A DNA stretch of 64,000 nucleotides, taken from the NCBI GenBank assembly GCA_965660545.1, contig CBFIAF010000004.1, positions 76,655-140,654 on the forward strand, in the 5' to 3' direction. Origin of the DNA: Alphaproteobacteria bacterium. Its GTDB lineage: Bacteria > Pseudomonadota > Alphaproteobacteria > Bin95. Of the stretch, positions 39,099 through 54,024 are shown piece after piece. Position 1 is the first letter of the stretch. Every line of letters starts with the position of its first letter. The notes beneath the pieces are model-generated. The model searched no databases, was not told the origin of the DNA, and worked only from the letters and a program-made list of their open reading frames with translations. A program made the position numbers and the translations under genes.

Positions 39099-40325
39099 CT
39101 ATATGGCGGGCGTAGTTTCTGCTGTCAAGATGGTATTGTTGCCTGCATCATCAAGCGGATGCGCTGCAGTGGGTGCAGCCTTAATCCATCCGCCACCTAA
39201 AACACGCGAGCCATCATAAAAAACACAAGCCTGGCCAGGGGATACACCGAATTGCGGCGTATATAAGCGGACTGTGACGGCAGTCTCTAAGCCTGAATCG
39301 TCCACCTGCAATACTGCCGGAACAAGCTTAGCCGCCGAGCGCAATTTCACTTGGACCCGAGCACCATCCAGCGACCACTCACCCAGCCAGTTCACTTCAC
39401 GCAGATGCGCCTCCGCGCAGGCGAGCGCGTCGCGGGGACCGACAATGACGCGCTTGGCCGCAGGATCTAGCCGCAGCACGTAATATGGGTCGGCATGGCC
39501 ACCGATATTCAGGCCCTTGCGCTGCCCAACCGTGAAACCAATTACACCATCATGCTGACCCAGCACTTGACCACTTAGATCAACAATCTCACCAGGCTCA
39601 ATCGCGCCGGGGCGGAGCTTGGCGACGACATCCTGGTAGCGACCGTTTGGTACAAAACAGATGTCCTGGCTGTCAGGCTTCTCCGCGATGGCAAGGCCGA
39701 ACCGGTGGGCGTGTGCCCGCGTTTCATGCTTGCTCATTCCGCCAAGCGGAAAGCGCAGAAAATCGAGCTGCTGGCGGTTGGTTGAAAACAGAAAGTAGCT
39801 TTGATCCTTATCCGGATCCACCCCGCAGAGCAGTTCAGGGCCTTCTGGACCACCCTGCCGCTGCACATAGTGACCGGTCGCCAATGCTGCAGCGCCCAAA
39901 TCCTTGGCTGTATCCAGCAGGTCCCGGAATTTTACGCGCTCATTACAGCGAACGCAGGGGATCGGCGTTTCGCCCTGCAAATAGCTATCCACGAACTCAT
40001 CCATAACTGACTGGCGGAACTTACTTTCGTAATCCAGGACGTAGTGGGGGAAGCCGATCCGGTCCGCCACTGTGCGGGCATCATAAATATCCTGGCCAGC
40101 GCAGCAGGTGCGCCCCGTGGGCACAGCATCACCATGATCATAGAGCTGTAAGGTAACGCCCACCACGTCATACCCGGCCTCATGCAGTAGTGCCGCAACG
40201 ACGGAGCTATCCACGCCGCCAGACATAGCAACAACAACCCTTGTCGACGCTGTTGGCCCTGGCAGGCCAAGGTCGATGTTAGGTGGGGCGATTTGAGGCT
40301 CAGTCACTGATGCTTCTTCACTCAT
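39099..40325 (-). CDS. mnmA: tRNA 2-thiouridine(34) synthase MnmA
   Basis: PP-loop motif [13 protein letters not shown] and MnmA-wide similarity. The start is set at the ATG at 40325 (alphaproteobacterial-type N-terminal extension), which avoids overlap with the downstream gene; the ORF itself extends to 40427. Confidence 0.8.
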
Positions 40326-40374
40326 GCAGCGGGAGATAAGCCCCCCTGGCGGCTTGTGCAAGCACCATTTGGTA

Positions 40375-41040
40375 TTAGAGCTTAAACCCTGGCCCATCAA
40401 AACGCCCGACAGTGGCGATTTGATCAACCGGATTGCGACGAAGCTTGGTTAGCATTTTTACCGGCTTGCCCATCGGCACGACAGCGGCGACAGCATAATT
40501 ACTCGGCGCGCCGAGCAGCTTCTGCACCTCTGGCTCCATAGCCGCAGCGAGCGTTGTGATCGTGCCGCCAAAGCCCGCCTGCCGCGCGCAAAGCAGTACA
40601 TTCCAAACGAACGGATAAATCGACCCACCGCTAATTACGCCAACCCGGTCAAGGAACTGGTCCATTGAGGCAACAACAGAAAGGTCCACCATAAACACCA
40701 GCACAACATCCGCCTTACGGAATGAATCCGTCAAATGGGTTGCTGGCTCTGTCGCTGCGATCTTAGCATCGGAAACTTTTGTTGGGTTAATGGTATTCCA
40801 GGGGCTTTCGCCATTCTTGACCTGGGCCGTGTAGCGTTTCGCCGCTGGGGCAGCCAGTTGGGCGAGTGCCTCACGAGTTTCAGCATCCCGCACGATGACG
40901 ACACGATTTCCTTGACGATTGCCGCCGGACGGCGCGAACCGGGCGTTATCCAGAATATCGAACAGCACAACATCGGGGAGCGATTCGCCCGTGAATTCGC
41001 GCGCCGAAAAGGTCATGCGCATTACATCATTCAGTTCCAT
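40375..41040 (-). CDS. Nitroreductase family protein
   Basis: NAD(P)H nitroreductase fold motifs ([19 protein letters not shown]). AAGGGG RBS before the ATG at 41040. Confidence 0.7.
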
Positions 41041-41053
41041 GGCGATTGCCCCC

Positions 41054-41782
41054 TTAAGGATATTTGCAGCGGTCCGCCGACACGACAATAAAACCGCGCC
41101 GACCTGTTACGATATTAAAGCGGAATTCCGTTGCTCCCATGACAACCCCATGTGACAATGGCAGCAGACCTTTGGCTTCACTGGTCTTACCGCCGACACG
41201 TGTGAACTTGATTGTGACTGGTTTTGCCGGATCAAACCAACCTTGTGGCCGACCGTCGCCGCCCAGCGCGGCCTTGCCTGTCCCGGTGACGACGATTGCG
41301 GACTTCGCGAACCCAATCCAGTTGTTCTTGCCCCGCTTGCCCTGCGTGCGGAGAATGAAGCGCTTGGTGATGGGGCGATTCTGACACTCATTCGCTGCCT
41401 TCGCCTCACGGATAACGAATGAGAGGCGTTTCGGCGGGACGCCGTTGTCCAGTTGCGATTGCAGCTGGCGAAACAATTCCTTCGCGTCCCCCGTCGGCAC
41501 ATCCTGCTCGTAACGGGCATTCCATTCAGCAACCTGAGTCTTAGAGCCACGAAGTTGGACGTTCAGGTTCTGATTCTCTGCGTCCAGGCTATTGAATTGG
41601 CCCTGTATCTCAGCCAGCTGCTCGCGCAGACTGCGCACTTCACGTTGTGCAAACGCAGTTCCTGTTTCATAGGCAAAGAAGCCTAGCAGCACCAGCGCGG
41701 TCAACGCGGCCGCAAACTTAACTAGCATCATCCGCCGTTTGCGCGTTTGGCGGCGGCGGCCTTCTCTTAATCCAACGGCCAT
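41054..41782 (-). CDS. Hypothetical membrane-anchored coiled-coil protein
   Basis: Basic N-terminus, one TM helix (LVKFAAALTALVLLGFFAY), then a long predicted coiled coil (REVRSLREQLAEIQGQFNSLDAENQNLNVQLRG...) and a C-terminal beta-rich domain. No recognisable family. Divergent from the cytochrome operon. Confidence 0.45.
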   Translation of the reverse strand: MAVGLREGRRRQTRKRRMMLVKFAAALTALVLLGFFAYETGTAFAQREVRSLREQLAEIQGQFNSLDAENQNLNVQLRGSKTQVAEWNARYEQDVPTGDAKELFRQLQSQLDNGVPPKRLSFVIREAKAANECQNRPITKRFILRTQGKRGKNNWIGFAKSAIVVTGTGKAALGGDGRPQGWFDPAKPVTIKFTRVGGKTSEAKGLLPLSHGVVMGATEFRFNIVTGRRGFIVVSADRCKYP

Positions 41783-41862: not shown

Positions 41863-42105
41863 ATGCCGCATCTTTCCTCCACGCAAGAAATTGGGAGATC
41901 ATCCATGCAGCAAGCCGGTGAAGCCCTTTCGGGAAGTGACCAACGCCGATGTGAGCGTTATCCTTGCCCCGATTATGCCGAAGCGTTCTTCGCCAGCCAT
42001 TGGCGTACTTGTGGTGTCGCCGATATTTCAGCAGGCGGTACCTTGCTCGAAACCACGAACCGCCTGATGTGGGTTATATTATCACGCTTTTCGTCTAATA
42101 TGTGA
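41863..42105 (+). CDS. PilZ-signature small ORF (possibly truncated/frameshifted c-di-GMP receptor)
   Basis: Contains RxxxR (RRCER) and, 23 residues later, an exact DxSxxG (DISAGG), the diagnostic c-di-GMP-binding motifs of PilZ domains. The ORF ends only 21 residues later; a +1 frame continues to about 42288 with plausible PilZ C-terminal strands. Confidence 0.45.
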   Translation: MPHLSSTQEIGRSSMQQAGEALSGSDQRRCERYPCPDYAEAFFASHWRTCGVADISAGGTLLETTNRLMWVILSRFSSNM

Positions 42106-42413: not shown

Positions 42414-43334
42414 ATGGTAAAGTCTATAATACAATTTATATTTGCAGCCGCCCTCGCGCTGACCGCGGTTATCGCGCAGCCCGCTACTGCGGCAAATCTT
42501 GGCCCCAAAACCTGCCAAGAATGCCATCGTGCTGAGTACGAGGTGTGGAAAGGCTCCGCGCACTTCAAGGCCTATCGTGGCGCGCACAAGCACAAAAATG
42601 CAAAAGCGATTGCGGCGGCTTCCGGCACTGGCAAATCCATGCGGAAAAACAAAACCTGCATGACTTGTCATTACACGGTAATTGGCAGCAAGGCGAGAGC
42701 GAAAGCTGGCCCGTCCTGCGAGAGCTGCCACGGCGGCGCTTCCAAGTGGGTAAAAATCCATAATGACCTTGGCGCTGGCGTGAAATCATCTGCGGATGAG
42801 TCTGCTGCCCACAAAAAGTCACGCCTGGCTGCAGCACAAAAAGCCGGCATGATCCATTCATCAATGGTTTACGACATCGCTGAGAACTGTAATTCCTGCC
42901 ACACCATGCAGAAGATTGACCCTGCAATGGCCGGTAAGCTGATCGATGCAGGCCATCCAATCAATGGTAGTTATGAGCTGGTGAAGTATAGCCAGGGTCA
43001 AGTTCGCCATCGCTTCTATCCGCCGAACATCACCGAGAACCAGAAAATGAACAAGGCGGAACTATCCCGCATGTTCTTGACCGGCCACGCTGCTGGTCTC
43101 GTCTATGCGACGAAGGTTCTGGAAAGTGCTGATAATGCCAAGTACAAAGCAGCTATGGAACAACGCGTCGTTGATGCAAAGAAAGCAATCGGCGCTGCTA
43201 AGGGTTCTATACCGGCTGCGGGCGCACTTTTGTCCTCACCGACGGAAGCAAACGCCAGGAAGTTCGTCGCGGCGTTGCAGGGCAAGGACCTGTCCGGTGC
43301 TGTCGGCGGCATGTTGCCCTCTGAGTACAAATAG
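42414..43334 (+). CDS. Periplasmic tetraheme cytochrome c (cytochrome c554-like CxxCH...W..S.H type)
   Basis: Signal peptide (MVKSIIQFIFAAALALTAVIAQPATAA). Four CxxCH motifs (CQECH, CMTCH, CESCH, CNSCH). First gene of the 7-gene operon. Confidence 0.85.
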   Translation: MVKSIIQFIFAAALALTAVIAQPATAANLGPKTCQECHRAEYEVWKGSAHFKAYRGAHKHKNAKAIAAASGTGKSMRKNKTCMTCHYTVIGSKARAKAGPSCESCHGGASKWVKIHNDLGAGVKSSADESAAHKKSRLAAAQKAGMIHSSMVYDIAENCNSCHTMQKIDPAMAGKLIDAGHPINGSYELVKYSQGQVRHRFYPPNITENQKMNKAELSRMFLTGHAAGLVYATKVLESADNAKYKAAMEQRVVDAKKAIGAAKGSIPAAGALLSSPTEANARKFVAALQGKDLSGAVGGMLPSEYK

Positions 43335-43458
43335 GGCGATACTATTCGCGAATCCTGAGGCGGTAATTAATGGATGTGTGCTGGGGTGGGCATGCCTTCA
43401 TTGATACTAGCCAAAGGCCCGCGGTTTTCCGCATCACGCGCTCCAGGGGGATGGCGCT

Positions 43459-45081
43459 TTGGCCTTAGCGACAAGATTAGCGCGTCCGCAACGTTGGGAC
43501 CGTCCGTTCGATCCAGGTATGACTGCGGCAGATTTGCAACACCTAAAACTTGATCCGGTTGTCGCCGCAATTGATGCAGACGCGTTCCCAGGGACTATTC
43601 CACTTGACGGCATTCTAGCTAACGATTCGCGGGTCATTCGTTACAAAGCCGGTGAAATCGTCGTTCGCGAAGGCGATTACGGTAATTCCGCATTTCTTAT
43701 TATGTCCGGCGCTTGCGACGTTGTCGTAAATCCGCCGCTGACTGATGCTCAGCTTGGCCGTCAAACTGAAGCGCCAGCTAGCATTGCGCGCGCGATTTCA
43801 CAACTCTGGAAGCGCACTGTCGTGCCGGAAGTTCGTGACGTCAGCCGCTATGGCGATATCGCCGTCACAGAGACAGATCATCAGGCCGTTTTTCTGCAAG
43901 ATTATGGCATTGTGCTTGGCGGGCGCAGCTTGCCGCGCCTTGGCGCGCAGCAAATGTTTGGTGAGTTGGCCGCTCTGGGCCGTACCCCCCGCGCGGCAAG
44001 CGTCGTTTGTGTCGAAGACGCAGAGGTGCTTGAGATTCGCTGGCAGGGCCTGCGGGAGCTTCGTCGGTTTGATGCCGGCTGGCGCCGCCAGATCGACACC
44101 AACTACCGCGCCAATGCGCTGATCTCGCACCTGCAGGACACGCTGCTGTTCGATGGTCTGTCCGACGACGCGCTCCAATCCATCGCAGACGCGACATTGT
44201 TTGAAACTTATGGCTCCTTTGACTGGAGTTCTTCGTTCCAGCGCGCCGAAAGCGATGCGCGCCTGGATACAGAACCCGTCATTGCGCGTGAAGGCGAATA
44301 TCCAGATGGCCTCTTGCTTATCCGTGCAGGATTTGGCCGCGTTTCTGTGCGCCAAGGGGCAGCAGAACGCACACTGACTTACTTATCTGCTGGCGATCAT
44401 TTCGGCTTGAGCGAGCTTTATGCTGGCTGCAAGGGCGGTGGATCACCGATGGAAGCAACACTCCGCGCGGTCGGTTACGTGGACGCCCTACGTGTGCCAA
44501 CTAAGGTACTCGAAGAGCATGTCTTCCCGCGCATGAACACAGCGCCGGATAGCTTCCTACAGTTTGCAGCCCGCCCCCTTGCAGATGATTCACTGCAGGA
44601 ATGGGCAATCGAAGAGCGTTTCATCAACGGCACCATGGCGATGCTGATTGATTTGGATAGATGCGTGCGCTGTGACGATTGCGTGCGGGCCTGTGCGTCC
44701 ACCCACGGCGGCAACCCTCGTTTTGTCCGCCACGGCAAGATCAATGACCATTGGATGGTCGCCAATGCCTGTATGCATTGCTCTGACCCTGTCTGTATGA
44801 TCGGCTGCCCAACGGGCGCTATTCACCGGACGCAGGCGGGCGGCTCTGTTGTCATCAATGACGACAGCTGCATCGGGTGCGGTACATGCGCCAATTCCTG
44901 CCCTTATAATAATATCCGCCTCGTCGAAATTCGGGACCTGTCTGGAGCCCCGGTTCAGGACGAAGCAACCGGGCAGCCCATTCGTAAGGCGACAAAATGT
45001 GATCTTTGCGCAGGTATTCCTGGTGGCCCCGCCTGTGAGCGCGCCTGCCCGCACGGCGCTCTCCAGCGCGTTGATTTTTAG
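43459..45081 (+). CDS. Cytoplasmic protein with two cyclic-nucleotide-binding (CAP-effector-like) domains fused to a four-cluster [4Fe-4S] ferredoxin module (HybA/NrfC/PsrB-like)
   Basis: N-terminal two-thirds carry two cNMP-binding-like domains (FLIMSGACDVV; GELAALGRTPRAASVVCVEDAEVLEI). C-terminal 150 aa has four Cys clusters: CVRCDDCVRAC, CMHCSDPVCMIGCP, CIGCGTCANSCP, CDLCAGIPGGPACERACP. No signal/TAT peptide and no HTH. Confidence 0.75.
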   Translation: MALATRLARPQRWDRPFDPGMTAADLQHLKLDPVVAAIDADAFPGTIPLDGILANDSRVIRYKAGEIVVREGDYGNSAFLIMSGACDVVVNPPLTDAQLGRQTEAPASIARAISQLWKRTVVPEVRDVSRYGDIAVTETDHQAVFLQDYGIVLGGRSLPRLGAQQMFGELAALGRTPRAASVVCVEDAEVLEIRWQGLRELRRFDAGWRRQIDTNYRANALISHLQDTLLFDGLSDDALQSIADATLFETYGSFDWSSSFQRAESDARLDTEPVIAREGEYPDGLLLIRAGFGRVSVRQGAAERTLTYLSAGDHFGLSELYAGCKGGGSPMEATLRAVGYVDALRVPTKVLEEHVFPRMNTAPDSFLQFAARPLADDSLQEWAIEERFINGTMAMLIDLDRCVRCDDCVRACASTHGGNPRFVRHGKINDHWMVANACMHCSDPVCMIGCPTGAIHRTQAGGSVVINDDSCIGCGTCANSCPYNNIRLVEIRDLSGAPVQDEATGQPIRKATKCDLCAGIPGGPACERACPHGALQRVDF

Positions 45082-45092
45082 GGGCACCAAGA

Positions 45093-45923
45093 ATGATCGT
45101 CCGAACAGTCAACAGCGTCCGGCCCTTCGGCTACACCCTGGCCGCCATCGGTGCCGCTGTGATCGCCAGTCTCGCTTATTATTCGCATCAGGAACACCTG
45201 AAGCTCAGTGACGCCACCTTCGTCACGGGTTGGGTATTGCTGACAGCCATGGTCTCCCTAGCGCTTTTCAACATCCGCAAGCGTCTTTCCATGATGTCAA
45301 TGGGTAGGGCAGCTTATTGGCTTGCGCTGCACGTTGTCGTTGGCCTATTCGCTGTCGGAATGTTCATTGTCCACACAGGTGGCATGTGGGCCACAGGCTT
45401 CTATGAGCAAGTGATGGCTGGATTGTTTTGGGCGACGGCCCTGTCAGGCGTCTTCGGCTGGCTATATCAGCGCGCGATGCCAAGGCGCCTTACACGCATT
45501 GGCTATGAAGTCGTTTATGAACGAATCCCGGCTGAAATTGCCGCCCTTCGCGAGGAAGCTGAAGAAGCCACCCTTGAAGGCGTAGGTGCTAGCGGCGAAC
45601 CAACCCTCGGCCGCTTCTATTCAGAAACCATGCAGGACTTCTTCCGTCGGCCGCGCTTTATGTTAAGCCACCTCTTTGGTGCAGGTGCAGCCCAACAGTG
45701 GGTTGACCTCCGGTTCCGCACGGTGCGCGGGCTAGTTGGCTCACAAGAAGAACCCGCCCTTGCCCGACTTGAAGCTGCCGCAAGACGCAAACTCTCTATA
45801 GACGCTCATTACGCCATTCAACGCTCCTTGAAGCTTTGGGTGGCGGTCCACGTCGTGCTATCTGCAGCGATGTTAACGCTTGCAGTATGGCACCTCATCC
45901 TGGTGCATGTGTACGCCCGATGA
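45093..45923 (+). CDS. Polytopic inner-membrane protein with conserved intramembrane histidines (candidate b-type heme/quinone-interacting subunit)
   Basis: 276 aa with about 5 predicted TM helices. His pairs sit inside helices (HVVVGLFAVGMFIVH; VHVVLSAAMLTLAVWHLILVH), with a roughly 120 aa soluble loop. The gene is 11 nt after the FeS gene and its stop overlaps the next start (ATGA). Confidence 0.55.
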   Translation: MIVRTVNSVRPFGYTLAAIGAAVIASLAYYSHQEHLKLSDATFVTGWVLLTAMVSLALFNIRKRLSMMSMGRAAYWLALHVVVGLFAVGMFIVHTGGMWATGFYEQVMAGLFWATALSGVFGWLYQRAMPRRLTRIGYEVVYERIPAEIAALREEAEEATLEGVGASGEPTLGRFYSETMQDFFRRPRFMLSHLFGAGAAQQWVDLRFRTVRGLVGSQEEPALARLEAAARRKLSIDAHYAIQRSLKLWVAVHVVLSAAMLTLAVWHLILVHVYAR

Positions 45924-48028
45924 CTGAAGACAAAAATCGCTTCGCCCACGATCGATCACCCTATGAGCGCCCGAATTTTCCTTTCCGGTGCGGCAGGGAG
46001 GCAGCCTTTGGCAAACCGTGCCCACGCGGCCCGAGCGCTGGCGGTAATTGCCAGGGGATCTCGGACTGCACGCCATTCCGGACACGCAAGATCGTAACAA
46101 ACACTGAAACCGGTGAAGAAACAGAGACCCAGCGTTGGGAATGCCGCCGCCCGCAACATGCTGGCGGCCCCTGTGCTGAAGGTCCACGGCCAGACGGCAC
46201 ATGCTCTTGCATCCATCCGCCATGTGCACCTAAGCTGACTATCCGGCGTCAGCGCGGCCGCTGGGCAATGCTTGCAGTTGCCGCAATGGTAGCCATGGTA
46301 TTGGCTTTTGTCGGCGCTGCTGGCGGTATCATTGGCCCTAAACCAGATGCAAACGGCATTCTTAGTCATGTTGGCTGGCCGAGTTCAGTCAACCCTGGTC
46401 CGCTTTCCGGCAAGCATGAACAATTCACGGCCAAAGACGGCTGTATTTCATGCCATGTCGGCCATTCAGACACATTAACAGGCTGGGCTGGTGCAATATT
46501 CGAGCGCACCACTATTTCTGAGTCCTGCGTCTCGTGCCACAGCTTCGGAGAGAAACAAGCTAATTCCGACCCTAAAGCCCAATCGCCAATGGCATTCGCC
46601 GCCCATAACACGAAATTCCCGAACCGCACGAATGCCCCAACAGCATCGTGCACGGGCTGCCACACGGAACATAAAGGTGTGGGTGCATCGATCACGCCGA
46701 TGGATGATGGCCAGTGCTCTGCATGCCACACCACCAAGTTCGACAGTTTCTCCAAATCCCATCCGGCGTTTGGGACAAATTTCCCGCATGAAAGTGCACG
46801 AACCATCAAGTTTCAGCATGGCAAGCACCTAGAAACGCATTTTGTAGACCAGCGCTATATCGATAGAGCGCCAAAGAATGGCTGCATCTCCTGCCATACA
46901 GACCAAGTTGATGGGCGTTTGCTACCGGGCAGTTTTGAGAATGGCTGTGCCGCATGTCATGAACTTGCGATTAAAGAACAGGGAATGGTCGTCTTCGGCC
47001 TTCCTGAATTGAGTGACCCTGAATTGACTGCAGAAGCCCGTGACTCATGCGGCTTTCCTGTGCCACAGCGTGAGCCGGCCCGTGCGACCCTTGAAGCCCT
47101 GGCTGAGGCACTTCCGACAATGCAGGCGCTTGGTGAAAACGCCGAGTCTGGCAACCTGAATGGCGTCATGACTGCAGTTGAGGCCTTAAGTGAGGCCCAG
47201 ACCGCGATTGCCGAAGCGCGGGATGAGCTTGCAGAGGCTGTCGACATGTCAGAAGCCGTTTCCCTTGATTCGCTCTCCCCGATCGCAGCATTCCTTCTGG
47301 CTGTTCCGGCTGATGATGCAGATGAATATAGCGAAGCAGCAGCAGCCTTCCTGATTGCCGCTGCCGCCGACGGGCAGGTCCCGCTTGCCGAAGCAATCGA
47401 CGCTAAGGGTGGTGATGCAACCGCGCTGCTGGCAGGCCTTTCACCCGAGTTAGTGACGGAAGTTACTTGCGCTTGGGCCGCAAACACGGAATATGAACCT
47501 AAGCAAGACCCTGAACCGGGCGCTGGCTGGGCTGCGCAAGAGCTGCAAGTGTCTTATCTGCCAACAGGCCATGCGGATGCTGTGACCAAGGGATGGATTG
47601 CACTTGGTCTAGCAAATCGTGGCAGTCAAGATGAAGGTGTCGAAGCTTTTGCTGACCTCGTGCTCAGTGCGGGCGACGGGCCGGGTCGTTGCTTTAAGTG
47701 TCACGTCGCACCAGCGGCAGATGCTGAAAAACAAGTCGTACAATGGGCTATTCCACGCGCAGATGTTCGCCCATTCACAACTTTCAATCATGATCCGCAC
47801 TTAAATGTACTAGATCAGGGAGCCGGATGTGCGACATGCCATAGTCAGTTGGAGCCGGGCGCAACCTTGGCTGATGGGCAATCTCGCCCAGGGCCGCATG
47901 CAAACGACTTCAAGCCGATCGATCAAGCAACTTGCAAAGATTGTCACCGCCCGGGCGCGGTTCGGCAGGATTGCGCACTTTGCCACCGCTACCATAGCAA
48001 TCCATCCATCCGGAAACGGACGTTGTGA
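45920..48028 (+). CDS. Membrane-anchored multiheme cytochrome c (10 CxxCH) with Cys-rich N-terminal region
   Basis: Ten CxxCH motifs arranged 6+4, split by a roughly 200 aa Ala/Glu-rich low-complexity linker. One hydrophobic helix (WAMLAVAAMVAMVLAFVGAAGG) sits after a roughly 110 aa N-terminal region containing 9 Cys (C-x10-C-x8-C-x5-C ... C-x9-C-x7-C-x-C-x4-C). The start at 45920 is inferred from the ATGA overlap. Confidence 0.75.
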   Translation: MTEDKNRFAHDRSPYERPNFPFRCGREAAFGKPCPRGPSAGGNCQGISDCTPFRTRKIVTNTETGEETETQRWECRRPQHAGGPCAEGPRPDGTCSCIHPPCAPKLTIRRQRGRWAMLAVAAMVAMVLAFVGAAGGIIGPKPDANGILSHVGWPSSVNPGPLSGKHEQFTAKDGCISCHVGHSDTLTGWAGAIFERTTISESCVSCHSFGEKQANSDPKAQSPMAFAAHNTKFPNRTNAPTASCTGCHTEHKGVGASITPMDDGQCSACHTTKFDSFSKSHPAFGTNFPHESARTIKFQHGKHLETHFVDQRYIDRAPKNGCISCHTDQVDGRLLPGSFENGCAACHELAIKEQGMVVFGLPELSDPELTAEARDSCGFPVPQREPARATLEALAEALPTMQALGENAESGNLNGVMTAVEALSEAQTAIAEARDELAEAVDMSEAVSLDSLSPIAAFLLAVPADDADEYSEAAAAFLIAAAADGQVPLAEAIDAKGGDATALLAGLSPELVTEVTCAWAANTEYEPKQDPEPGAGWAAQELQVSYLPTGHADAVTKGWIALGLANRGSQDEGVEAFADLVLSAGDGPGRCFKCHVAPAADAEKQVVQWAIPRADVRPFTTFNHDPHLNVLDQGAGCATCHSQLEPGATLADGQSRPGPHANDFKPIDQATCKDCHRPGAVRQDCALCHRYHSNPSIRKRTL

Positions 48029-48036
48029 GGATTAAG

Positions 48037-49809
48037 ATGATGGAAGAGAGAAAGATGGAATTTGGAATCCGCCCCTTGGGGCGCCGCCTTCTAATTGCTG
48101 GCGCTTTCGCCGCTGCGGTATTTGGCATGCCAATTACAGCAGTAGCAGCCGAAAAAGAAGATCCGCATGCGGATCTTATGGCCGAGGAAAGCTACCCAAC
48201 AGCCGCCCAATGTGGTGCCTGTCACACCCAGGTCTATCGCGAATGGGCGTCGTCTAACCACGCATACGCATCGATTTCGCCGATGTTCCACAAGTTCGAG
48301 CAGAAGATTAATGATCTCTCGAGCGGCACCATCCGAGGCTTCTGCGTACGGTGCCATCAACAGATCGGCACGCAGCTCAATGAACGCCGCGACCTCCCGC
48401 TTTGGGAACGCAATCAGATTTCACGCGAAGGCATTTCCTGCGTGACGTGCCACCGCGTCCGTGAAGAATTCGGCAAGGTCAACGGCGAACGCCGGATCAT
48501 CCCAGGCCAGGTCTACACGCCTGTCAGCGGTGTTGGCGATGGCAAAAAGCTAAAGGAAATCATTGAGAACCGTAGCGAATATCGTGTTGCGGTTAGCGAA
48601 AAGGAACGCGGGGCCCAGATTCACACGGGCGTTTACAAGTTCCCACAGATTTCTAAGTCAGAATTCTGTGTGTCTTGTCACCAGGTCGCTGTGAACCCAG
48701 GCATCAAGCTTGAAGTTGTTTGGGAGCAGTATAGAAACTCCCCAGCAGCCGCTAATGGCGTCACGTGTCAGGATTGCCATATGGGCAAAGTGCCAGGCCG
48801 GGCTGACGGTTATGCAACCGGGCCCGTCGCAATCGTTAATGGTGAAGAAATCAATCCGGACCGCAGGCACTCCAACCATGCCTTCTACGGCCCTGGCTAC
48901 CCAATTGCTCATCCTGGCATCTTCCCACACAACCCAGATGCAGCTGAAATTCCCATCGAAGACTGGCTGGAATTCGACTACCGCTCTAAGTGGGGCTCGG
49001 AAGAATTTGAAGAGAAAGTCGCCAACGGCGAGATTGATGAAGACAGCCTGCCAGACGCATGGTCCGATTCAGTTGACCGTGAGGAAGCTTGGGAAATCAT
49101 CCAGGAGAACGTCGGACTTCTGGAAGAAAAACGCGACCTTCGCCGTCAAGTGATGGAAAATGGTTCTCGTCTTGATGGCCCGTTCTTCGCTAGCGCGCCA
49201 AAACAAGGGTCCTCCCTCAGCTTTGACATCAAACTGACCAACACAGATGACGGCCATAACCTGCCGTCTGGTTCTCTCGGTGCCCAGCCTGAAATCTGGC
49301 TGAATGTTGCTGTCGTATCGCCCAGCGGCAAGACAGTATGGGAATCTGGTTACGTTGATGGGAATGGCGATATGGCCGACATTCACTCCCTAGAGGTAAG
49401 AGCGGGCAAAATCGAATATGATGACCAGCTTTTCAACTTGCAAACCAAGTTTCTATTCACGAACGTTAAGGGGACTGAACGCGAATGGTATCTGCCAATA
49501 AATATCGATATCGATCAGCTTCCATTCATCCGCCCAGCAAACGTGCCGACGACTATCCTAAACCATGCGCCATTTATCCGCATGGAAGGTCGTTCGATTC
49601 CACCACTTGGGTTTCGCAACGCTAGCTACACCGTGCCGGCAGATGCGTTGACGGAAAAAGGTACTTACAAAATGGCCGTCCGACTGCGGAGCCGCGCCGA
49701 ACCGATCTACTTCATGCGGTTCGTCGATTCGACGCCGGAAATGGAAGAAGCCATGAACAGCTGGATGCTTGATTTCCATTCCTACACCGTGGAATTTGAA
49801 GTCAACTGA
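48037..49809 (+). CDS. Secreted pentaheme cytochrome c with large heme-free C-terminal domain
   Basis: Signal peptide. Five CxxCH (CGACH, CVRCH, CVTCH, CVSCH, CQDCH), all in the first roughly 280 aa. A roughly 300 aa C-terminal domain has no heme motif. GAGGA RBS before the ATG at 48037; the ORF track starts at a GTG at 48025 that overlaps the upstream stop. Confidence 0.8.
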   Translation: MMEERKMEFGIRPLGRRLLIAGAFAAAVFGMPITAVAAEKEDPHADLMAEESYPTAAQCGACHTQVYREWASSNHAYASISPMFHKFEQKINDLSSGTIRGFCVRCHQQIGTQLNERRDLPLWERNQISREGISCVTCHRVREEFGKVNGERRIIPGQVYTPVSGVGDGKKLKEIIENRSEYRVAVSEKERGAQIHTGVYKFPQISKSEFCVSCHQVAVNPGIKLEVVWEQYRNSPAAANGVTCQDCHMGKVPGRADGYATGPVAIVNGEEINPDRRHSNHAFYGPGYPIAHPGIFPHNPDAAEIPIEDWLEFDYRSKWGSEEFEEKVANGEIDEDSLPDAWSDSVDREEAWEIIQENVGLLEEKRDLRRQVMENGSRLDGPFFASAPKQGSSLSFDIKLTNTDDGHNLPSGSLGAQPEIWLNVAVVSPSGKTVWESGYVDGNGDMADIHSLEVRAGKIEYDDQLFNLQTKFLFTNVKGTEREWYLPINIDIDQLPFIRPANVPTTILNHAPFIRMEGRSIPPLGFRNASYTVPADALTEKGTYKMAVRLRSRAEPIYFMRFVDSTPEMEEAMNSWMLDFHSYTVEFEVN

Positions 49810-49888
49810 TTGGGGATCGCCTGCGGCGCGCCAAGCTGCCAAAGAGAACAGTTAAGGCGCGCCGCAGGCGAACGAGGAGAATAGAGGC

Positions 49889-51415
49889 GTGACACCAAGT
49901 TTTCTAAAGATGACCGGGCGCATTGCAATGGCGACAGCGGCTTCCGCACTGGCGATGATGGTCGCCACTGGCGGCCCTGCATATGCGGCGAGTGCCCATG
50001 ACGACAGTCCGCGCAAGATGGATCCTAATGTCAAACCGTCAGAGCATGACTCTGATGTCTTCAAGGCGGATCCAACATACGAAGAGAAAGTGTATGACGC
50101 TGAGCGCCAACTCGAAATCTATGGCGGCAAGCGCAACATTGAGGAGCCACGCCCGATCCTAGAAGTTGGTCGTCCGCAATATGTCGAAGGTCCTTTCGAC
50201 GAAGGCATTAATGTAATTGGCGAAAAGAACCTTTTGTTCCCATCGTTTTCAGTTTTTGGTGACGTCCGTACAGCGGTAGCCGCGAATGACGTTGGCGGTG
50301 ATGTTGTGTACGAGTTTGCCAACCGCCTGAACCTGGACCTCGACCTTAAGCTAACCGCCACAGAACGTGTTCACGGCTTCTTCCGCCCGATCGACGAGAA
50401 CGGTAAGTTCATAGGATATCGGACCGGCGATAAGAGGGGCAATAATGGCCGTGACGGTAAGCTCGATGCAAACCCAGAAACATTATTCTTTGAAGGTGAT
50501 ATTGGTGCCATATATGGCGGGTTAGCAGACGAATACACAACCTTTGACCTGCCAATCGCATTTGGTTTGACACCCTTCGTCATGCAGAATGGGCTTTGGG
50601 TTGATGAGGCCTTTGTTGGGGGCGGCATATCACTCGCTGCAATGAACAGTCGTACACTTGATATCACAAACATGGACATCACCTTCTTTGGTGGTTTCGA
50701 TGAAATCGATTCACCGGCATTCGTTGGCCAGGACGGTGTCCTAGATACAGACGACGTATCAATTTATGCCGTAGCCGCTTTCGTCGATTGGTTCGAAGGC
50801 TATTCTGAGTTCGGTATCGGCTATGTCGACGGAAGAGAGCAACTCAACGATATTGACTATTTCAACTTTACCGGTGCCTATACGTCACGGTATGGCGGCT
50901 GGCTCTCCAACTCCGTCAGGCTATTTGGCGCTGTGGGTCAAGATACAAACGGCCGTGCTAAAACGGCCGATGGCTTTGCCTTACTCATAGAAAACTCTTT
51001 GATCACGTCCAAGCCAGATGTCTTTGTTCCCTATTTCAATGGCTGGGTTGGTATCGATAAGCCGCAATCCCTCGCACGCAACAACGGCGGGCTATTGAAG
51101 AACACCGGCATCACGTTCGAGAACGACGGCATGACCTCTTTTCCGACGCTGGATGATACCGCACAAGACACATTCGGTGGTGCCATCGGCGTCAACTATC
51201 TGTTCAGTCTAGACCAGCAGCTCGTGGTTGAAGCGTCTACGGTTCAAAGACTTGATACTGCCTCACCTGCTCAGGGTGGTCAGTATGCTGTTGGCTTCCG
51301 CTATCAGATCCCAGTCACGAACCGGGTTATCCTGCGTACAGACGGTATCTACGGCATTCGGGAAAGCCAGGAAGACATTGGCGGCGTTCGCTTCGAGCTG
51401 CGCGTTAAATTCTAA
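49889..51415 (+). CDS. Outer-membrane beta-barrel protein (porin-like; candidate cytochrome conduit)
   Basis: Signal peptide (MTGRIAMATAASALAMMVATGGPAYAASA), alternating amphipathic beta-strand pattern, Gly/aromatic-rich, and a C-terminal ...RFELRVKF ending in Phe, the OMP sorting signature. Confidence 0.65.
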   Translation: MTPSFLKMTGRIAMATAASALAMMVATGGPAYAASAHDDSPRKMDPNVKPSEHDSDVFKADPTYEEKVYDAERQLEIYGGKRNIEEPRPILEVGRPQYVEGPFDEGINVIGEKNLLFPSFSVFGDVRTAVAANDVGGDVVYEFANRLNLDLDLKLTATERVHGFFRPIDENGKFIGYRTGDKRGNNGRDGKLDANPETLFFEGDIGAIYGGLADEYTTFDLPIAFGLTPFVMQNGLWVDEAFVGGGISLAAMNSRTLDITNMDITFFGGFDEIDSPAFVGQDGVLDTDDVSIYAVAAFVDWFEGYSEFGIGYVDGREQLNDIDYFNFTGAYTSRYGGWLSNSVRLFGAVGQDTNGRAKTADGFALLIENSLITSKPDVFVPYFNGWVGIDKPQSLARNNGGLLKNTGITFENDGMTSFPTLDDTAQDTFGGAIGVNYLFSLDQQLVVEASTVQRLDTASPAQGGQYAVGFRYQIPVTNRVILRTDGIYGIRESQEDIGGVRFELRVKF

Positions 51416-51463
51416 TCACGATCGTATTGCTAGCCAAAATGGCACCGAGATTGGGGAAGAACG

Positions 51464-52729
51464 ATGGATAATTTGGCGAACTATGTCGCCATAGGTGCAG
51501 CCGGGCTGCTGGGCCTTTACATTTTGTCTCTGCTGATGGGCTCGCTCCGTCAGCAGAGCCAAATGGCGCGGCATTATGAGGAACAATCACAGCTATTCCG
51601 CGCACGTGCGGAAGGCTTGCAGAGGATCCGTGCTGAAGAGATCGAGAAAACCCAAAACACCTGGGCAGGCCTTCGGAAATTCAAAGTTGCCCGTAAGATC
51701 AATGAGATCACAGATTGCCACTCCATCTACCTTGAACCTCATGACGGTCGGCCCCTACCGCCGTTTGAGCCAGGCCAGTTTCTAACGTTCAAGTTTGCTG
51801 TGCCCGATCAGCCTAGCGACGTAATACGTTGCTACTCCCTGTCAGACGCACCTGGCCGTGACTACTACAGGATTACCGTCAAGAAGGTGCCACCGCCCCG
51901 TGGCAAGCCTGAAATAGCACCTGGTGTGTCCTCCACCTTCGTAAATGAAGTCTTGAATGAAGGCGATATAATTGATGTACGTGCGCCCAATGGCGGCTTC
52001 TATCTGAAGCGTGAACATAAACGTCCAGTCGTCCTAATCGGTGGCGGCGTTGGCATCACACCAGTGCTCAGCATGCTGAACTACATTGTGGAGCATGAGC
52101 CGCAGCGGGAAACATGGTTCTTCTTTGGGGCGCCCAATAAAGCCGGCCATATTATGAAGGATCACCTAGCCCAAATTGCTGCGGAAAATCCTAATATCCG
52201 CATGAACATTTGCTACAGCGACCCATCAGATGACGATGTGTTTGGGGAAGATTACGACCATCACGCCCGCGTTTCCGTAGAGCTGTTCAAGAAAGTCCTG
52301 CCTTCTAACAATTTCGAATATTACTTCTGCGGCCCACCGCCAATGATGAATGCGCTTGATGCGGACCTCAAAGCTTGGGGCGTACCAGAAGCCGATATTC
52401 ACTCTGAAGGCTTTGGCCCTGCTTCAGTTAAGAAGCCCAAACCACCTGCTGTAGAAGGTGCTGCAGAATTAGCATCTGTATCGGTAACGTTTGCTAAATC
52501 TGGCAAGACATTGGATTGGACGCCTGCTGCTGGAACAATTCTTGATTTGGCGGAAGCAAACGGTGTTGATGTTGCTTCGGGTTGCCGGGCCGGCAGCTGT
52601 GGTACTTGCCTCACCGCCGTTATAGAAGGCGATGTGGATTACGCAACGCCGCCAGACGCTCCGATCGAAAATGGCTCTTGCCTCGCGTGTGTCGGCACCC
52701 CGAAAGGGCCAATCAAGATAAACGCCTAA
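51464..52729 (+). CDS. Membrane-anchored FNR-family flavoprotein reductase with C-terminal plant-type [2Fe-2S] ferredoxin domain
   Basis: N-terminal TM helix (VAIGAAGLLGLYILSLLMGS), FAD motif RCYSLSD, NAD(P) motif GGGVGITP, C-terminal CRAGSCGTCL...CLACV 2Fe-2S motif. Last gene of the operon. Confidence 0.75.
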   Translation: MDNLANYVAIGAAGLLGLYILSLLMGSLRQQSQMARHYEEQSQLFRARAEGLQRIRAEEIEKTQNTWAGLRKFKVARKINEITDCHSIYLEPHDGRPLPPFEPGQFLTFKFAVPDQPSDVIRCYSLSDAPGRDYYRITVKKVPPPRGKPEIAPGVSSTFVNEVLNEGDIIDVRAPNGGFYLKREHKRPVVLIGGGVGITPVLSMLNYIVEHEPQRETWFFFGAPNKAGHIMKDHLAQIAAENPNIRMNICYSDPSDDDVFGEDYDHHARVSVELFKKVLPSNNFEYYFCGPPPMMNALDADLKAWGVPEADIHSEGFGPASVKKPKPPAVEGAAELASVSVTFAKSGKTLDWTPAAGTILDLAEANGVDVASGCRAGSCGTCLTAVIEGDVDYATPPDAPIENGSCLACVGTPKGPIKINA

Positions 52730-52752
52730 ACCAAGTTCGATCTGAAAAGATT

Positions 52753-52790
52753 ACGGTCCGCAACCAACTGGTTTCGGGCCGTATTTTTTT
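52753..52790 (+). terminator. Rho-independent terminator closing the cytochrome operon (possibly bidirectional)
   Basis: Stem ACGGTCCG...CGGGCCGT followed by ATTTTTTT, 24 nt after the reductase stop. The convergent CoA-transferase gene ends at 52822. Confidence 0.6.
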
Positions 52791-52821
52791 GAATGCCAAT
52801 CTAGTCAGGCAAGGGCAGAGG

Positions 52822-54024
52822 CTAAACGATCCCACTTGCCTTCAGTGATGCAATATCCTCACTGGAAAGGTTGAGGACTTCACAAAGGATTTCATCCGTG
52901 TGATGCCCAATAGGCGGACCGGCATGGGCAATCCGCCCAGGCGTGCCCGTTAGATTAGGAGAAACCCCAGGCATTGGTATGTCGCCCAATTCCTCATCCG
53001 GAACGGTCACAATGTTCTTGCGGGCCTCAAAATGGGGATCTTCAGCGATATCAGCGGCGGTATAGATCCCGCCGAAGGGTACATTGCCGCCAACAAGCCG
53101 CGCTTCGATCTCCGCGAAGGCGTGCGCGCTAATCCAATCTCCCAGCAGCGCTTCAAGTTCATCAGCCCGCTCAATTCTGGCAGCGCTTTGGGCGTAGCGG
53201 GGATCTGTCGCAAGTTCTGGCATGCCAATGGCGTCTGCCAATCTTTTAAACACGCCATCACCACCAGCCGCAATCTGGACGTAGCGCCCATCTTTGGTTT
53301 CGAATGTCCCGGCGGGAGAGAATGTAGGATTGCGGTTGCCAATTCGCTCCCGGACCTCCCCATTCATCATATACTTGGAGATTAGGTCTGCTGTAATGCG
53401 GAATGGCGCTTCGTAGAGGCCAAGGTCAATCATCTGCCCCACTCCCCCCTGCGCATCACGCTGATAGAGCGCTAACATCGCTGAAAGCGCACCAAAAGTG
53501 CCGGTATTATAGTCTGCCGTCGGAAAAGCAGGGCGAACGGGGAAGCGATCTGGGAACCCGGTTGGGTACATATAGCCCGAGAAACCAAGCGCAATCCGAT
53601 CATAGCCCGATCGCTTGGAGTATGGCCCCGTTTGCCCATAACCAGACACGCGAACCATAATCAGACGTGGATTAACGGCCTTTAGGTCTTCCCAGCCTAT
53701 ATTCCATCGCTCCAACGTGCCCGGCGTGAAGTTCTCCATCACGATGTCTGCAGTCGCGGCCAGGTCCCTTAGAATCTTCTGGCCTTCAGGAACCCGCAGA
53801 TTGAGCGTGATCGATTTCTTGTTGCGGCCCTCGATTAGCCAGTTTGGTGGTCGACCAGCTGCACCATCAACAGGCGTGCCACGCAACGCATCGCCGCGAC
53901 CAGGCTGCTCGACTTTAATGACCTCAGCGCCAAAATCGCCAAGCAACGTGGCACCGAACGGTCCAGCAATCAGCGTGCCGATGTCCAGCACACGCACACC
54001 GGCAAGTGGCAAGGGCGTCGTCAT
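52822..54024 (-). CDS. CaiB/BaiF family III CoA-transferase
   Basis: N-terminus MTTPLPLAGVRVLDIGTLIAGPFGATLLGDFGAEVIKVEQP is the family signature. 400 aa. Confidence 0.85.
   Translation of the reverse strand: MTTPLPLAGVRVLDIGTLIAGPFGATLLGDFGAEVIKVEQPGRGDALRGTPVDGAAGRPPNWLIEGRNKKSITLNLRVPEGQKILRDLAATADIVMENFTPGTLERWNIGWEDLKAVNPRLIMVRVSGYGQTGPYSKRSGYDRIALGFSGYMYPTGFPDRFPVRPAFPTADYNTGTFGALSAMLALYQRDAQGGVGQMIDLGLYEAPFRITADLISKYMMNGEVRERIGNRNPTFSPAGTFETKDGRYVQIAAGGDGVFKRLADAIGMPELATDPRYAQSAARIERADELEALLGDWISAHAFAEIEARLVGGNVPFGGIYTAADIAEDPHFEARKNIVTVPDEELGDIPMPGVSPNLTGTPGRIAHAGPPIGHHTDEILCEVLNLSSEDIASLKASGIV

Follow-up and report, generated by a model that had tools for sequence, protein, structure and literature searches.

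The 64,000-nt stretch of DNA analyzed here, which we call the window, comes from an Alphaproteobacteria bacterium (assembly GCA_965660545.1, contig CBFIAF010000004.1) and contains a cluster of seven same-strand genes that ends with ptdC. The ptdC gene has an ATG start and 421 codons, occupies exactly 51464-52729 (+), and has the sequence GGGGAAG 4 nt 5' of its start codon. Its 421-aa product looks like a membrane-tethered NAD(P)H-FAD-[2Fe-2S] reductase from the open reading frame, Pfam, NCBIfam, homologs and an AlphaFold2 model. The gene family and the operon have already been described: a 2023/24 preprint by Elbon, Stewart and Glass (bioRxiv 10.1101/2023.11.21.568154) named the cluster ptdABCDEFG for its penta-, tetra- and deca-heme proteins, and the window holds another member of that cluster type. 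The preprint describes PtdC as an 'FAD/NAD(P)-binding oxidoreductase' that is flavohemoprotein-like, and we assigned our gene to PtdC from the gene set and this published description. The seven genes are the same as in the preprint, the heme counts of PtdA, PtdD and PtdG match (5, 4 and 10), and the order in the window, D-E-F-G-A-B-C, is a circular permutation of ptdABCDEFG. In the literature we looked for later work on ptd and for independent descriptions of it, and that preprint was all we found. A paper on extracellular electron transfer in Methylobacter was considered as related and set aside, since its cluster is an ordinary MtrAB-type one that is unrelated to ptd.

The six partners of ptdC occupy 42414-51415. 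The first gene of the operon, ptdD (42414..43334, +), encodes a c554-like tetraheme cytochrome that is predicted to be periplasmic (four CXXCH motifs, a signal-peptide-like N-terminus and a match to Pfam Cytochrome_C554); the preprint also has PtdD as a tetraheme protein. It is followed by ptdE (43459..45081, +), whose probably cytoplasmic product combines cyclic nucleotide monophosphate (cNMP)-binding domains with a 4Fe-4S domain of four motifs (Pfam cNMP_binding and Fer4_11, no signal peptide), in keeping with the preprint's cNMP-binding protein with 4Fe-4S clusters. Next is ptdF (45093..45923, +), a 276-aa membrane protein with five transmembrane (TM) helices, a 120-aa helical domain that is predicted to be cytoplasmic, and putative di-heme b character; in the preprint it is a ferric-reductase-like membrane protein (bioRxiv 10.1101/2023.11.21.568154). 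The decaheme cytochrome gene ptdG (45920..48028, +; 10 CXXCH) probably starts at the ATG at 45920, which overlaps the ptdF stop codon (ATGA). Its product has one TM helix, preceded by about 115 residues with nine cysteines and no Pfam match (45920-46270), and this N-terminal part may give the periplasmic cytochrome a cytoplasmic domain that binds a metal or a cluster. The last two genes before ptdC form what appears to be an optional outer module: ptdA (48025..49809, +), a pentaheme cytochrome (5 CXXCH) that the preprint describes as having a beta-sandwich, and ptdB (49889..51415, +), a putative outer-membrane porin of 508 aa with a signal peptide, no cysteines and a C-terminal Phe, also called a porin in the preprint.

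The stop codon of ptdB and the start codon of ptdC are separated by 48 bp (51416-51463). The initial annotation had placed ptdC as the terminal gene of a cytochrome operon and named an internal promoter in this gap as what would separate it from that operon. A sigma-70 scan found no + strand promoter-like site in the gap, and RNA folding found no significant hairpin there (z = -0.9). Over the whole operon, the sigma-70 scan (8 matches, 8.8 expected) and the terminator scan (14 matches, 13.8 expected) were both at chance level, and we use them as absence of evidence only. Beyond ptdC, at 52752..52790 (+), there is an intrinsic terminator-like hairpin with U7 that would end the operon (minimum free energy -24.6 kcal/mol, z = -3.75, 1/200 shuffles as good). 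The GC content is continuous from ptdA and ptdB into ptdC. This continuity, the 3' terminator and the linkage in other genomes (78/80, described below) strongly support the placement of ptdC at the end of the operon. There is also a small step in GC content within the operon (42600-52999), from 0.54-0.58 in D-E-F-G to 0.51-0.53 in A-B-C, with ptdA spanning the step (0.55 to 0.51). A modular origin of the A-B-C block might explain it.

The initial annotation read the protein as a TM helix followed by FAD, NAD and plant-type 2Fe-2S parts, and the open reading frame, Pfam and the hydrophobicity profile bear out this order together with the motifs it quoted (RCYSLSD, GGGVGITP, CRAGSCGTCL and CLAC), all of which we found by reading the sequence. 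Pfam NAD_binding_1 matches residues 191-298 (E 1.3e-20, 74.5 bits against a cut-off of 22) and Fer2 matches residues 347-413 (E 3.9e-12, 46.4 bits against a cut-off of 21). FAD_binding_6 matches residues 101-179 at 19.7 bits, slightly below its cut-off of 21.1; many PtdC relatives have a precomputed match to this domain, and the fold of PtdC matches that of the flavohemoglobin FHP. The AlphaFold2 model (predicted local distance difference test score, pLDDT, 81.6) consists of a single continuous helix (residues 2-65), an FAD barrel, an NAD domain, a disordered linker and a ferredoxin domain. From these results we divided the gene into a predicted N-terminal TM anchor (about aa 6-26, 51479..51541), a charged helical stalk that joins the anchor to the FAD domain (about aa 27-65, 51542..51658), an FAD-binding beta-barrel with the invariant RCYSLSD (about aa 68-180, 51665..52003; also supported by the FHP alignment and the invariant columns R122-D128), an NAD(P)H-binding Rossmann domain with GGGVGITP, CGPPPMM and E(G/A)FGP (about aa 186-320, 52019..52423), a flexible Lys/Pro/Ala-rich linker (about aa 321-338, 52424..52477) and a plant-type [2Fe-2S] ferredoxin domain (about aa 339-421, 52478..52726), all on the + strand. 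The linker has a pLDDT below 50 at residues 318-335 and varies in length and sequence in the alignment.

The 2Fe-2S domain aligns best with cyanobacterial and plant ferredoxins (E 1e-11), with LAC of PtdC placed on LTC. By position in this alignment, C374, C379, C382 and C409 are the probable [2Fe-2S] ligands. There is one more family-invariant cysteine, C406 (aa 406-409 lie at 52679-52690), that is off the four canonical ligand positions; it might serve as an alternative ligand or as a redox-active thiol.

PtdC has more than 3,400 homologs, nearly all of them 419-431 aa long, so the pattern seen in ptdC is not due to chance. The set of RxYS, GGxGxTP and Cx4Cx2C...C was complete in 120/120 relatives. 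In the NAD domain the invariant columns are G194, G195, G197, T199, P200, C289, F317, G318 and P319, and the signature of the FNR superfamily is present and family-invariant (R122-C-Y-S125, G195-x-G197-x-T-P200, C289-G and F317-G-P). N-terminal anchoring, as the initial annotation had it, also holds across the family. The 19-mer at residues 8-26 (Kyte-Doolittle 2.08) is the only strongly hydrophobic one in the protein besides the Rossmann beta1 strand, and 114/119 relatives have an N-terminal hydrophobic helix, with its character kept and its sequence not. Across the family, 38-49 residues (median 41) separate the end of the TM helix from an invariant WxGxRKF motif. We believe that this conserved length suggests a spacer that sets the FNR/ferredoxin module at a fixed height.

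NAD(P)H use requires the catalytic domains to be in the cytoplasm. K/R residues follow the anchor helix in all 114 of the helix-bearing relatives (a mean of 0.03 before the helix and 2.6 in the following 15 residues), and because of this the positive-inside rule predicts an N-out/C-in anchor with cytoplasmic catalytic domains. An independent corroboration comes from a variant relative of 629 aa (P0055), which has an N-terminal FHA domain and an added TM helix (181-203) ahead of the conserved anchor (211-231). A second TM helix is just what this topology would need for both the FHA domain and the FNR module to be cytoplasmic. The same fusion hints at phospho-threonine-dependent regulation in some lineages.

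The linkage of ptdC to the other ptd genes was examined with a synteny scan of the PtdC-family alignment against one genome per GTDB species, from which we took the best 80 loci (47-95% identity). Other ptd genes were present at 78 of these, and both exceptions are loci where ptdC is at most 35 bp from a contig end. For counts of complete loci we used the 30 that have at least 9.9 kb on each side. All 30 have E, F and G on the same strand as ptdC, while D is present in 27, and A and B in 25. Eight gene orders occur: DEFGABC, the order in the window, is the most common (18/30), followed by ABCDEFG (4), CEFGABD and DCEFG (2 each), and CEFGAB, EFGC, CEFG and CDEFG (1 each). In the reciprocal direction, we scanned metagenomes with an alignment of 10 PtdF sequences, and all 11 of the PtdF-anchored loci with adequate flanks had a ptdC homolog. 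PtdC and PtdE are the most conserved subunits (about 50% identity), compared with PtdF and PtdG, which drop to 25-45%. The invariant core of the system is C+E+F+G, with ptdC an obligate member, and ptdA and ptdB are optional and the order is shuffled. That this linkage has outlasted repeated rearrangements in at least seven phyla strongly indicates that the genes form a functional unit.

The ptd system is widely distributed, and we found it in Alpha- and Gammaproteobacteria, Burkholderiales, Nitrospinota, Planctomycetota, Verrucomicrobiota and Omnitrophota. Cultured carriers are Tistlia consotensis, Ferruginivarius sediminum, Hwanghaeella grinnelliae and Kordiimonadales IMCC3096. A metagenome-assembled genome (MAG) from the oxygen-deficient zone of the eastern tropical North Pacific (ETNP3_MAG_51, locus L032) has a homolog that is 51% identical to our PtdC within a DEFGABC cluster. 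The outer module comes in two sequence types when loci L008-L087 are compared with ptdA and ptdB of the window (48025-51415). Relative to the proteins of the window, the identities are about 57-68% for PtdA and about 44-57% for PtdB where the cluster is of the DEFGABC type, whereas in ABCDEFG-type clusters these values are about 36-41% and 24-32%; PtdC is at about 48-53% in both types. In 5/30 complete loci A and B are both absent.

PtdF has only four invariant His residues in an alignment of 39 diverse sequences, and they form two H-x13-H pairs, H80/H94 and H253/H267. In a confident AlphaFold2 model (pLDDT 91.7) it has five TM helices with a 120-residue helical domain between TM4 and TM5, and the His pairs fall in the third and fifth TM helices (H80/H94 in helix 73-95 and H253/H267 in helix 248-270). 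The TM4-TM5 domain has 19 K/R residues, most of the total in the protein. This location, together with the order of the helices, suggests that the domain is cytoplasmic and that one His of each pair lies near each membrane face. Such a geometry would make PtdF a transmembrane di-heme wire. Pfam gave weak DUF4405 matches to 22/39 members and Ferric_reduct matches to 3/39, and a comparison of the PtdF profile with E. coli MsrQ and YodB by hhalign did not detect similarity. PtdE has no signal peptide and carries four CxxCxxCxxxC-type motifs (aa 402, 438, 471 and 514), which suggest four Fe-S clusters of the DmsB/HybA type, and not the two stated in the preprint. A canonical PKA-like phosphate-binding cassette (FGELAALGRTPRAAS, aa 167) is found in one cNMP-binding domain of PtdE, and gating of electron flow by cyclic nucleotides is thus conceivable.

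We propose that PtdC is the flavin/iron-sulfur dehydrogenase subunit of the Ptd system and that it passes electrons from NAD(P)H to the multiheme cytochromes, and we give this reading a probability of roughly 60%. The anchor and the stalk would hold the FNR module and the [2Fe-2S] domain at the cytoplasmic face of the inner membrane. NAD(P)H would give a hydride to the FAD, and the FAD would hand single electrons to the tethered [2Fe-2S] domain, which would swing on its flexible linker. The next carriers would be the four clusters of the Fe-S protein PtdE and then the two b-hemes of PtdF, which would take the electrons across the membrane. There the membrane-anchored decaheme PtdG and the tetraheme PtdD would receive them, and in clusters that have ptdA and ptdB the path may extend to the pentaheme/porin pair at the outer membrane. 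C+E+F(+G) would then export electrons in a split, NOX-like arrangement, with NAD(P)H and not quinol as their source. The domains and motifs, the cytoplasmic orientation and the obligate linkage are results of our analysis; we infer the occupancy of the cofactors, the order of the carriers, the direction of flow and the independence from quinone. By established bioenergetics, electrons would run down the redox gradient in the outward direction, from NAD(P)H (-320 mV) to typical c-hemes, and an outside-positive membrane potential would favor the same direction. Since the proposed path bypasses quinone and pumps nothing, it would resemble the logic of NOX/ferric reductases or Fre-MsrQ rather than respiration.

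There are several points that count against this proposal. The function of ptd is called 'completely unknown' in the preprint, which has transcript data for ptdAB only (bioRxiv 10.1101/2023.11.21.568154). The [2Fe-2S] domain could hand over to PtdE, as we propose, or straight to PtdF. The conserved stalk length agrees more with a docking site at the far end of PtdE than with one directly under a heme, and this is the weakest link in the argument. The donor may be NADH or NADPH. We considered reading the preference from the residues after beta2 (GAPNKAGH in our protein, GVRN in the family consensus) and dropped this as unreliable. Quinol could also enter through PtdF.

This last point leads to what we consider the best of the alternatives, although an unlikely one: quinol delivered through PtdF, in the manner of CymA, ImcH or b561-type proteins, would be the bulk supply, and PtdC with PtdE would use electrons from NAD(P)H only to activate, repair, sense or regulate the complex. 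A quinone-site motif was not identified. The presence of ptdC in all of the complete clusters (30/30 and 11/11), and its place next to ptdE as the most conserved subunit, are a better fit to a core catalytic role than to an auxiliary reductase.

The initial annotation had offered an NAD(P)H entry or exit point. Entry is much likelier, with the role itself inferred. For PtdC to be the exit, electrons from periplasmic or extracellular donors would need to flow inward through the c-hemes, PtdF and PtdE to the 2Fe-2S and FAD of PtdC, and PtdC would reduce NAD(P)+ in the direction of a ferredoxin:NADP+ reductase. FNR-type enzymes can in principle run in reverse, the potentials of multiheme cytochromes can be low, and ptd occurs in chemolithotroph lineages that need reverse electron flow (Nitrospinota, and the nitrite oxidizers that are noted among ptd carriers in bioRxiv 10.1101/2023.11.21.568154). 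However, inward transfer through the di-heme would oppose an outside-positive potential and, for most donors, the redox gradient as well, by established bioenergetics. Inward flow would need a proton pump, a quinone loop or a bifurcating flavoprotein, and we detected none of these in the conserved core. In addition, the closest relatives of the FNR module are flavohemoglobin, which oxidizes NAD(P)H, and reductases of the phthalate dioxygenase reductase type. We therefore regard the exit as very improbable.

It is also hard for us to credit direct coupling of the NOX type, with the PtdC FAD docked directly beneath the inner b-heme of PtdF and with the 2Fe-2S domain and PtdE forming a side branch or a second input. 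In flavohemoglobin, to which the FNR module is most similar, electrons pass from FAD straight to a b-heme, and the TM helix and stalk of PtdC meet the homology right at the globin/FAD junction (residues 58-67 on FHP 142-150). The anchor helix could pack against PtdF, and the Fre-MsrQ system is a precedent (PMC5676040). Yet the conserved stalk of about 41 residues, if extended, would put the FAD domain far from the membrane, and direct coupling would leave the invariant 2Fe-2S domain and the obligate four-cluster PtdE with no role on the main path.

Finally, the idea that ptdC is an unrelated, independently transcribed reductase of the oxygenase or NO-detoxifying type that happens to follow the cytochrome genes, which could appeal to the domain order of class IA oxygenase reductases, to a best NCBIfam match with an NO-inducible flavohemoprotein and to the 48-bp gap, is effectively refuted by synteny (the linkage at 78/80 loci in eight gene orders), and PtdC also has no globin domain (the Hmp model is matched only at 142-397), no oxygenase gene is conserved nearby, the downstream genes differ in every relative, and the gap has no promoter-like site or hairpin.

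To our knowledge, all well-studied bacterial outward electron conduits draw on the quinone pool. If our proposal of NAD(P)H entry is true, a conduit fed directly by NAD(P)H through a tethered flavin/2Fe-2S subunit would dissipate energy and not conserve it. This would point away from respiration and toward, for example, the acquisition of iron by reduction, the formation of superoxide outside the cell or redox balancing. A wider possibility, which we hold only tentatively and think is rather doubtful as a whole, is that the C-E-F-G core is a quinone-independent prokaryotic counterpart of NOX/ferric reductase, made of several subunits, that exports NAD(P)H electrons across the inner membrane (and across the outer membrane with PtdA and PtdB), maybe gated by cyclic nucleotides through the PKA-like cassette of PtdE, and that it could account for NAD(P)H-dependent reduction of extracellular Fe(III) or production of superoxide by many marine bacteria. 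Since there are cultured carriers, the NAD(P)H-entry proposal is directly testable. PtdC is the easiest handle, as it alone among the subunits can be assayed simply by spectrophotometry and makes a clear prediction for a knockout.

Around the operon, the genes upstream of the ptd cluster differ among the relatives that we inspected. In the window, two upstream genes on the - strand (39099-40427 and 40375-41088) look by sequence like MnmA, a tRNA 2-thiouridylase, and a nitroreductase-family protein. Just upstream of ptdD there is an 80-aa open reading frame at 41863-42105 (+) with RRCER and DISAGG and a weak PilZ match (E 9e-4, below the cut-off). It is kept at 67-79% in the closest relatives only (L008, L009 and L088-L090), and it may be a protein that binds cyclic di-GMP or a remnant of one. 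We found no FNR/CRP-type box upstream of ptdD, and two matches elsewhere in the window are at chance level. Downstream, a convergent gene for a family III CoA-transferase (52822-54024, -; CoA_transf_3, E 3e-118) has its terminator region in common with ptdC. It is presumably unrelated to ptd, being unconserved beside ptd in relatives.

Compared with the preprint, several features of PtdC are new here. The similarity to flavohemoproteins that its authors noted for PtdC is also seen for our protein. The term '2Fe-2S' does not occur in the preprint, and a search of its text for PtdC gave no description of a membrane anchor or a stalk. The anchor, the stalk and the 2Fe-2S domain are all family-wide, and the ligand assignment and the topology are new as well. 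The definition of the C-E-F-G core, the reciprocal linkage statistics and the list of cultured carriers are further additions, and the preprint does not report that C-E-F-G is an invariant core.

The closest known protein to the FAD/NAD part of PtdC is the flavohemoglobin of Cupriavidus necator (FHP, 1cqx/3ozu residues 145-398), with 39% identity and E 3e-49. By Foldseek the reductase half of FHP matches PtdC with E 2e-24, and the RxYS, GGxGxTP and E-x-FGP motifs are common to both. The NCBIfam model NF009805 (Hmp) aligns residues 58-322 of PtdC with model positions 142-397 at 248.9 bits, well short of the equivalog cut-off of 432. The homology to FHP starts at the globin/FAD junction; PtdC has no globin and instead has the TM helix and stalk, with the 2Fe-2S domain appended.

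The initial annotation saw a resemblance to class IA oxygenase reductases, and this stands for the domain order and not for the FNR module, which is closest to the flavohemoglobin reductase. Phthalate dioxygenase reductase (2pia) has the same domain order and aligns with residues 69-413 of PtdC (361 columns by Foldseek), and the reductase domains of CYP116B (6laa/6kbh) also match, including the ferredoxin domain. The identity of class IA reductases to PtdC is about 25-27%, and they are soluble or fused to a P450 and serve oxygenases, whereas PtdC is tethered. Among the relatives that we inspected there was no oxygenase gene in the conserved ptd neighborhood, and the flanking genes outside ptd vary.

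NqrF is similar to our proposal for PtdC: it too is anchored in the membrane, holds sites for NADH, FAD and 2Fe-2S, and lets electrons into a membrane redox complex. Its order is TM, 2Fe-2S, FAD and NAD, the reverse of PtdC, as the initial annotation had recognized. Accordingly, TIGR01941 (NqrF) matches only the FAD/NAD part of PtdC (residues 109-318, 106 bits against a cut-off of 295; alignment E about 2e-20). NqrF works with the Nqr subunits and with quinone, and there are no nqr genes next to ptdC.

For the transmembrane step, the systems to compare are NOX/FRD and Fre-MsrQ. NOX/FRD proteins have bis-histidyl H-x12/14-H motifs in the third and fifth TM helices and a NOX-type FAD motif H(PSA)F[TS][LIMV] (PMC5676040). 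In the two-component Fre-MsrQ system, a cytoplasmic NAD(P)H dehydrogenase of the FNR family feeds a transmembrane di-heme b protein, and this in turn reduces an acceptor across the membrane (PMC5676040). PtdF has the bis-histidyl arrangement, with H-x13-H pairs in TM3 and TM5, but it has five predicted TM helices in place of six, with no similarity to MsrQ in place of FRD homology, and PtdC carries RCYSL (the RxYS type), not the HPF[TS] type. Compared with NOX and Fre-MsrQ, the ptd system would have the 2Fe-2S domain and the four-cluster PtdE as extra Fe-S carriers and multiheme c-type cytochromes as its acceptors.

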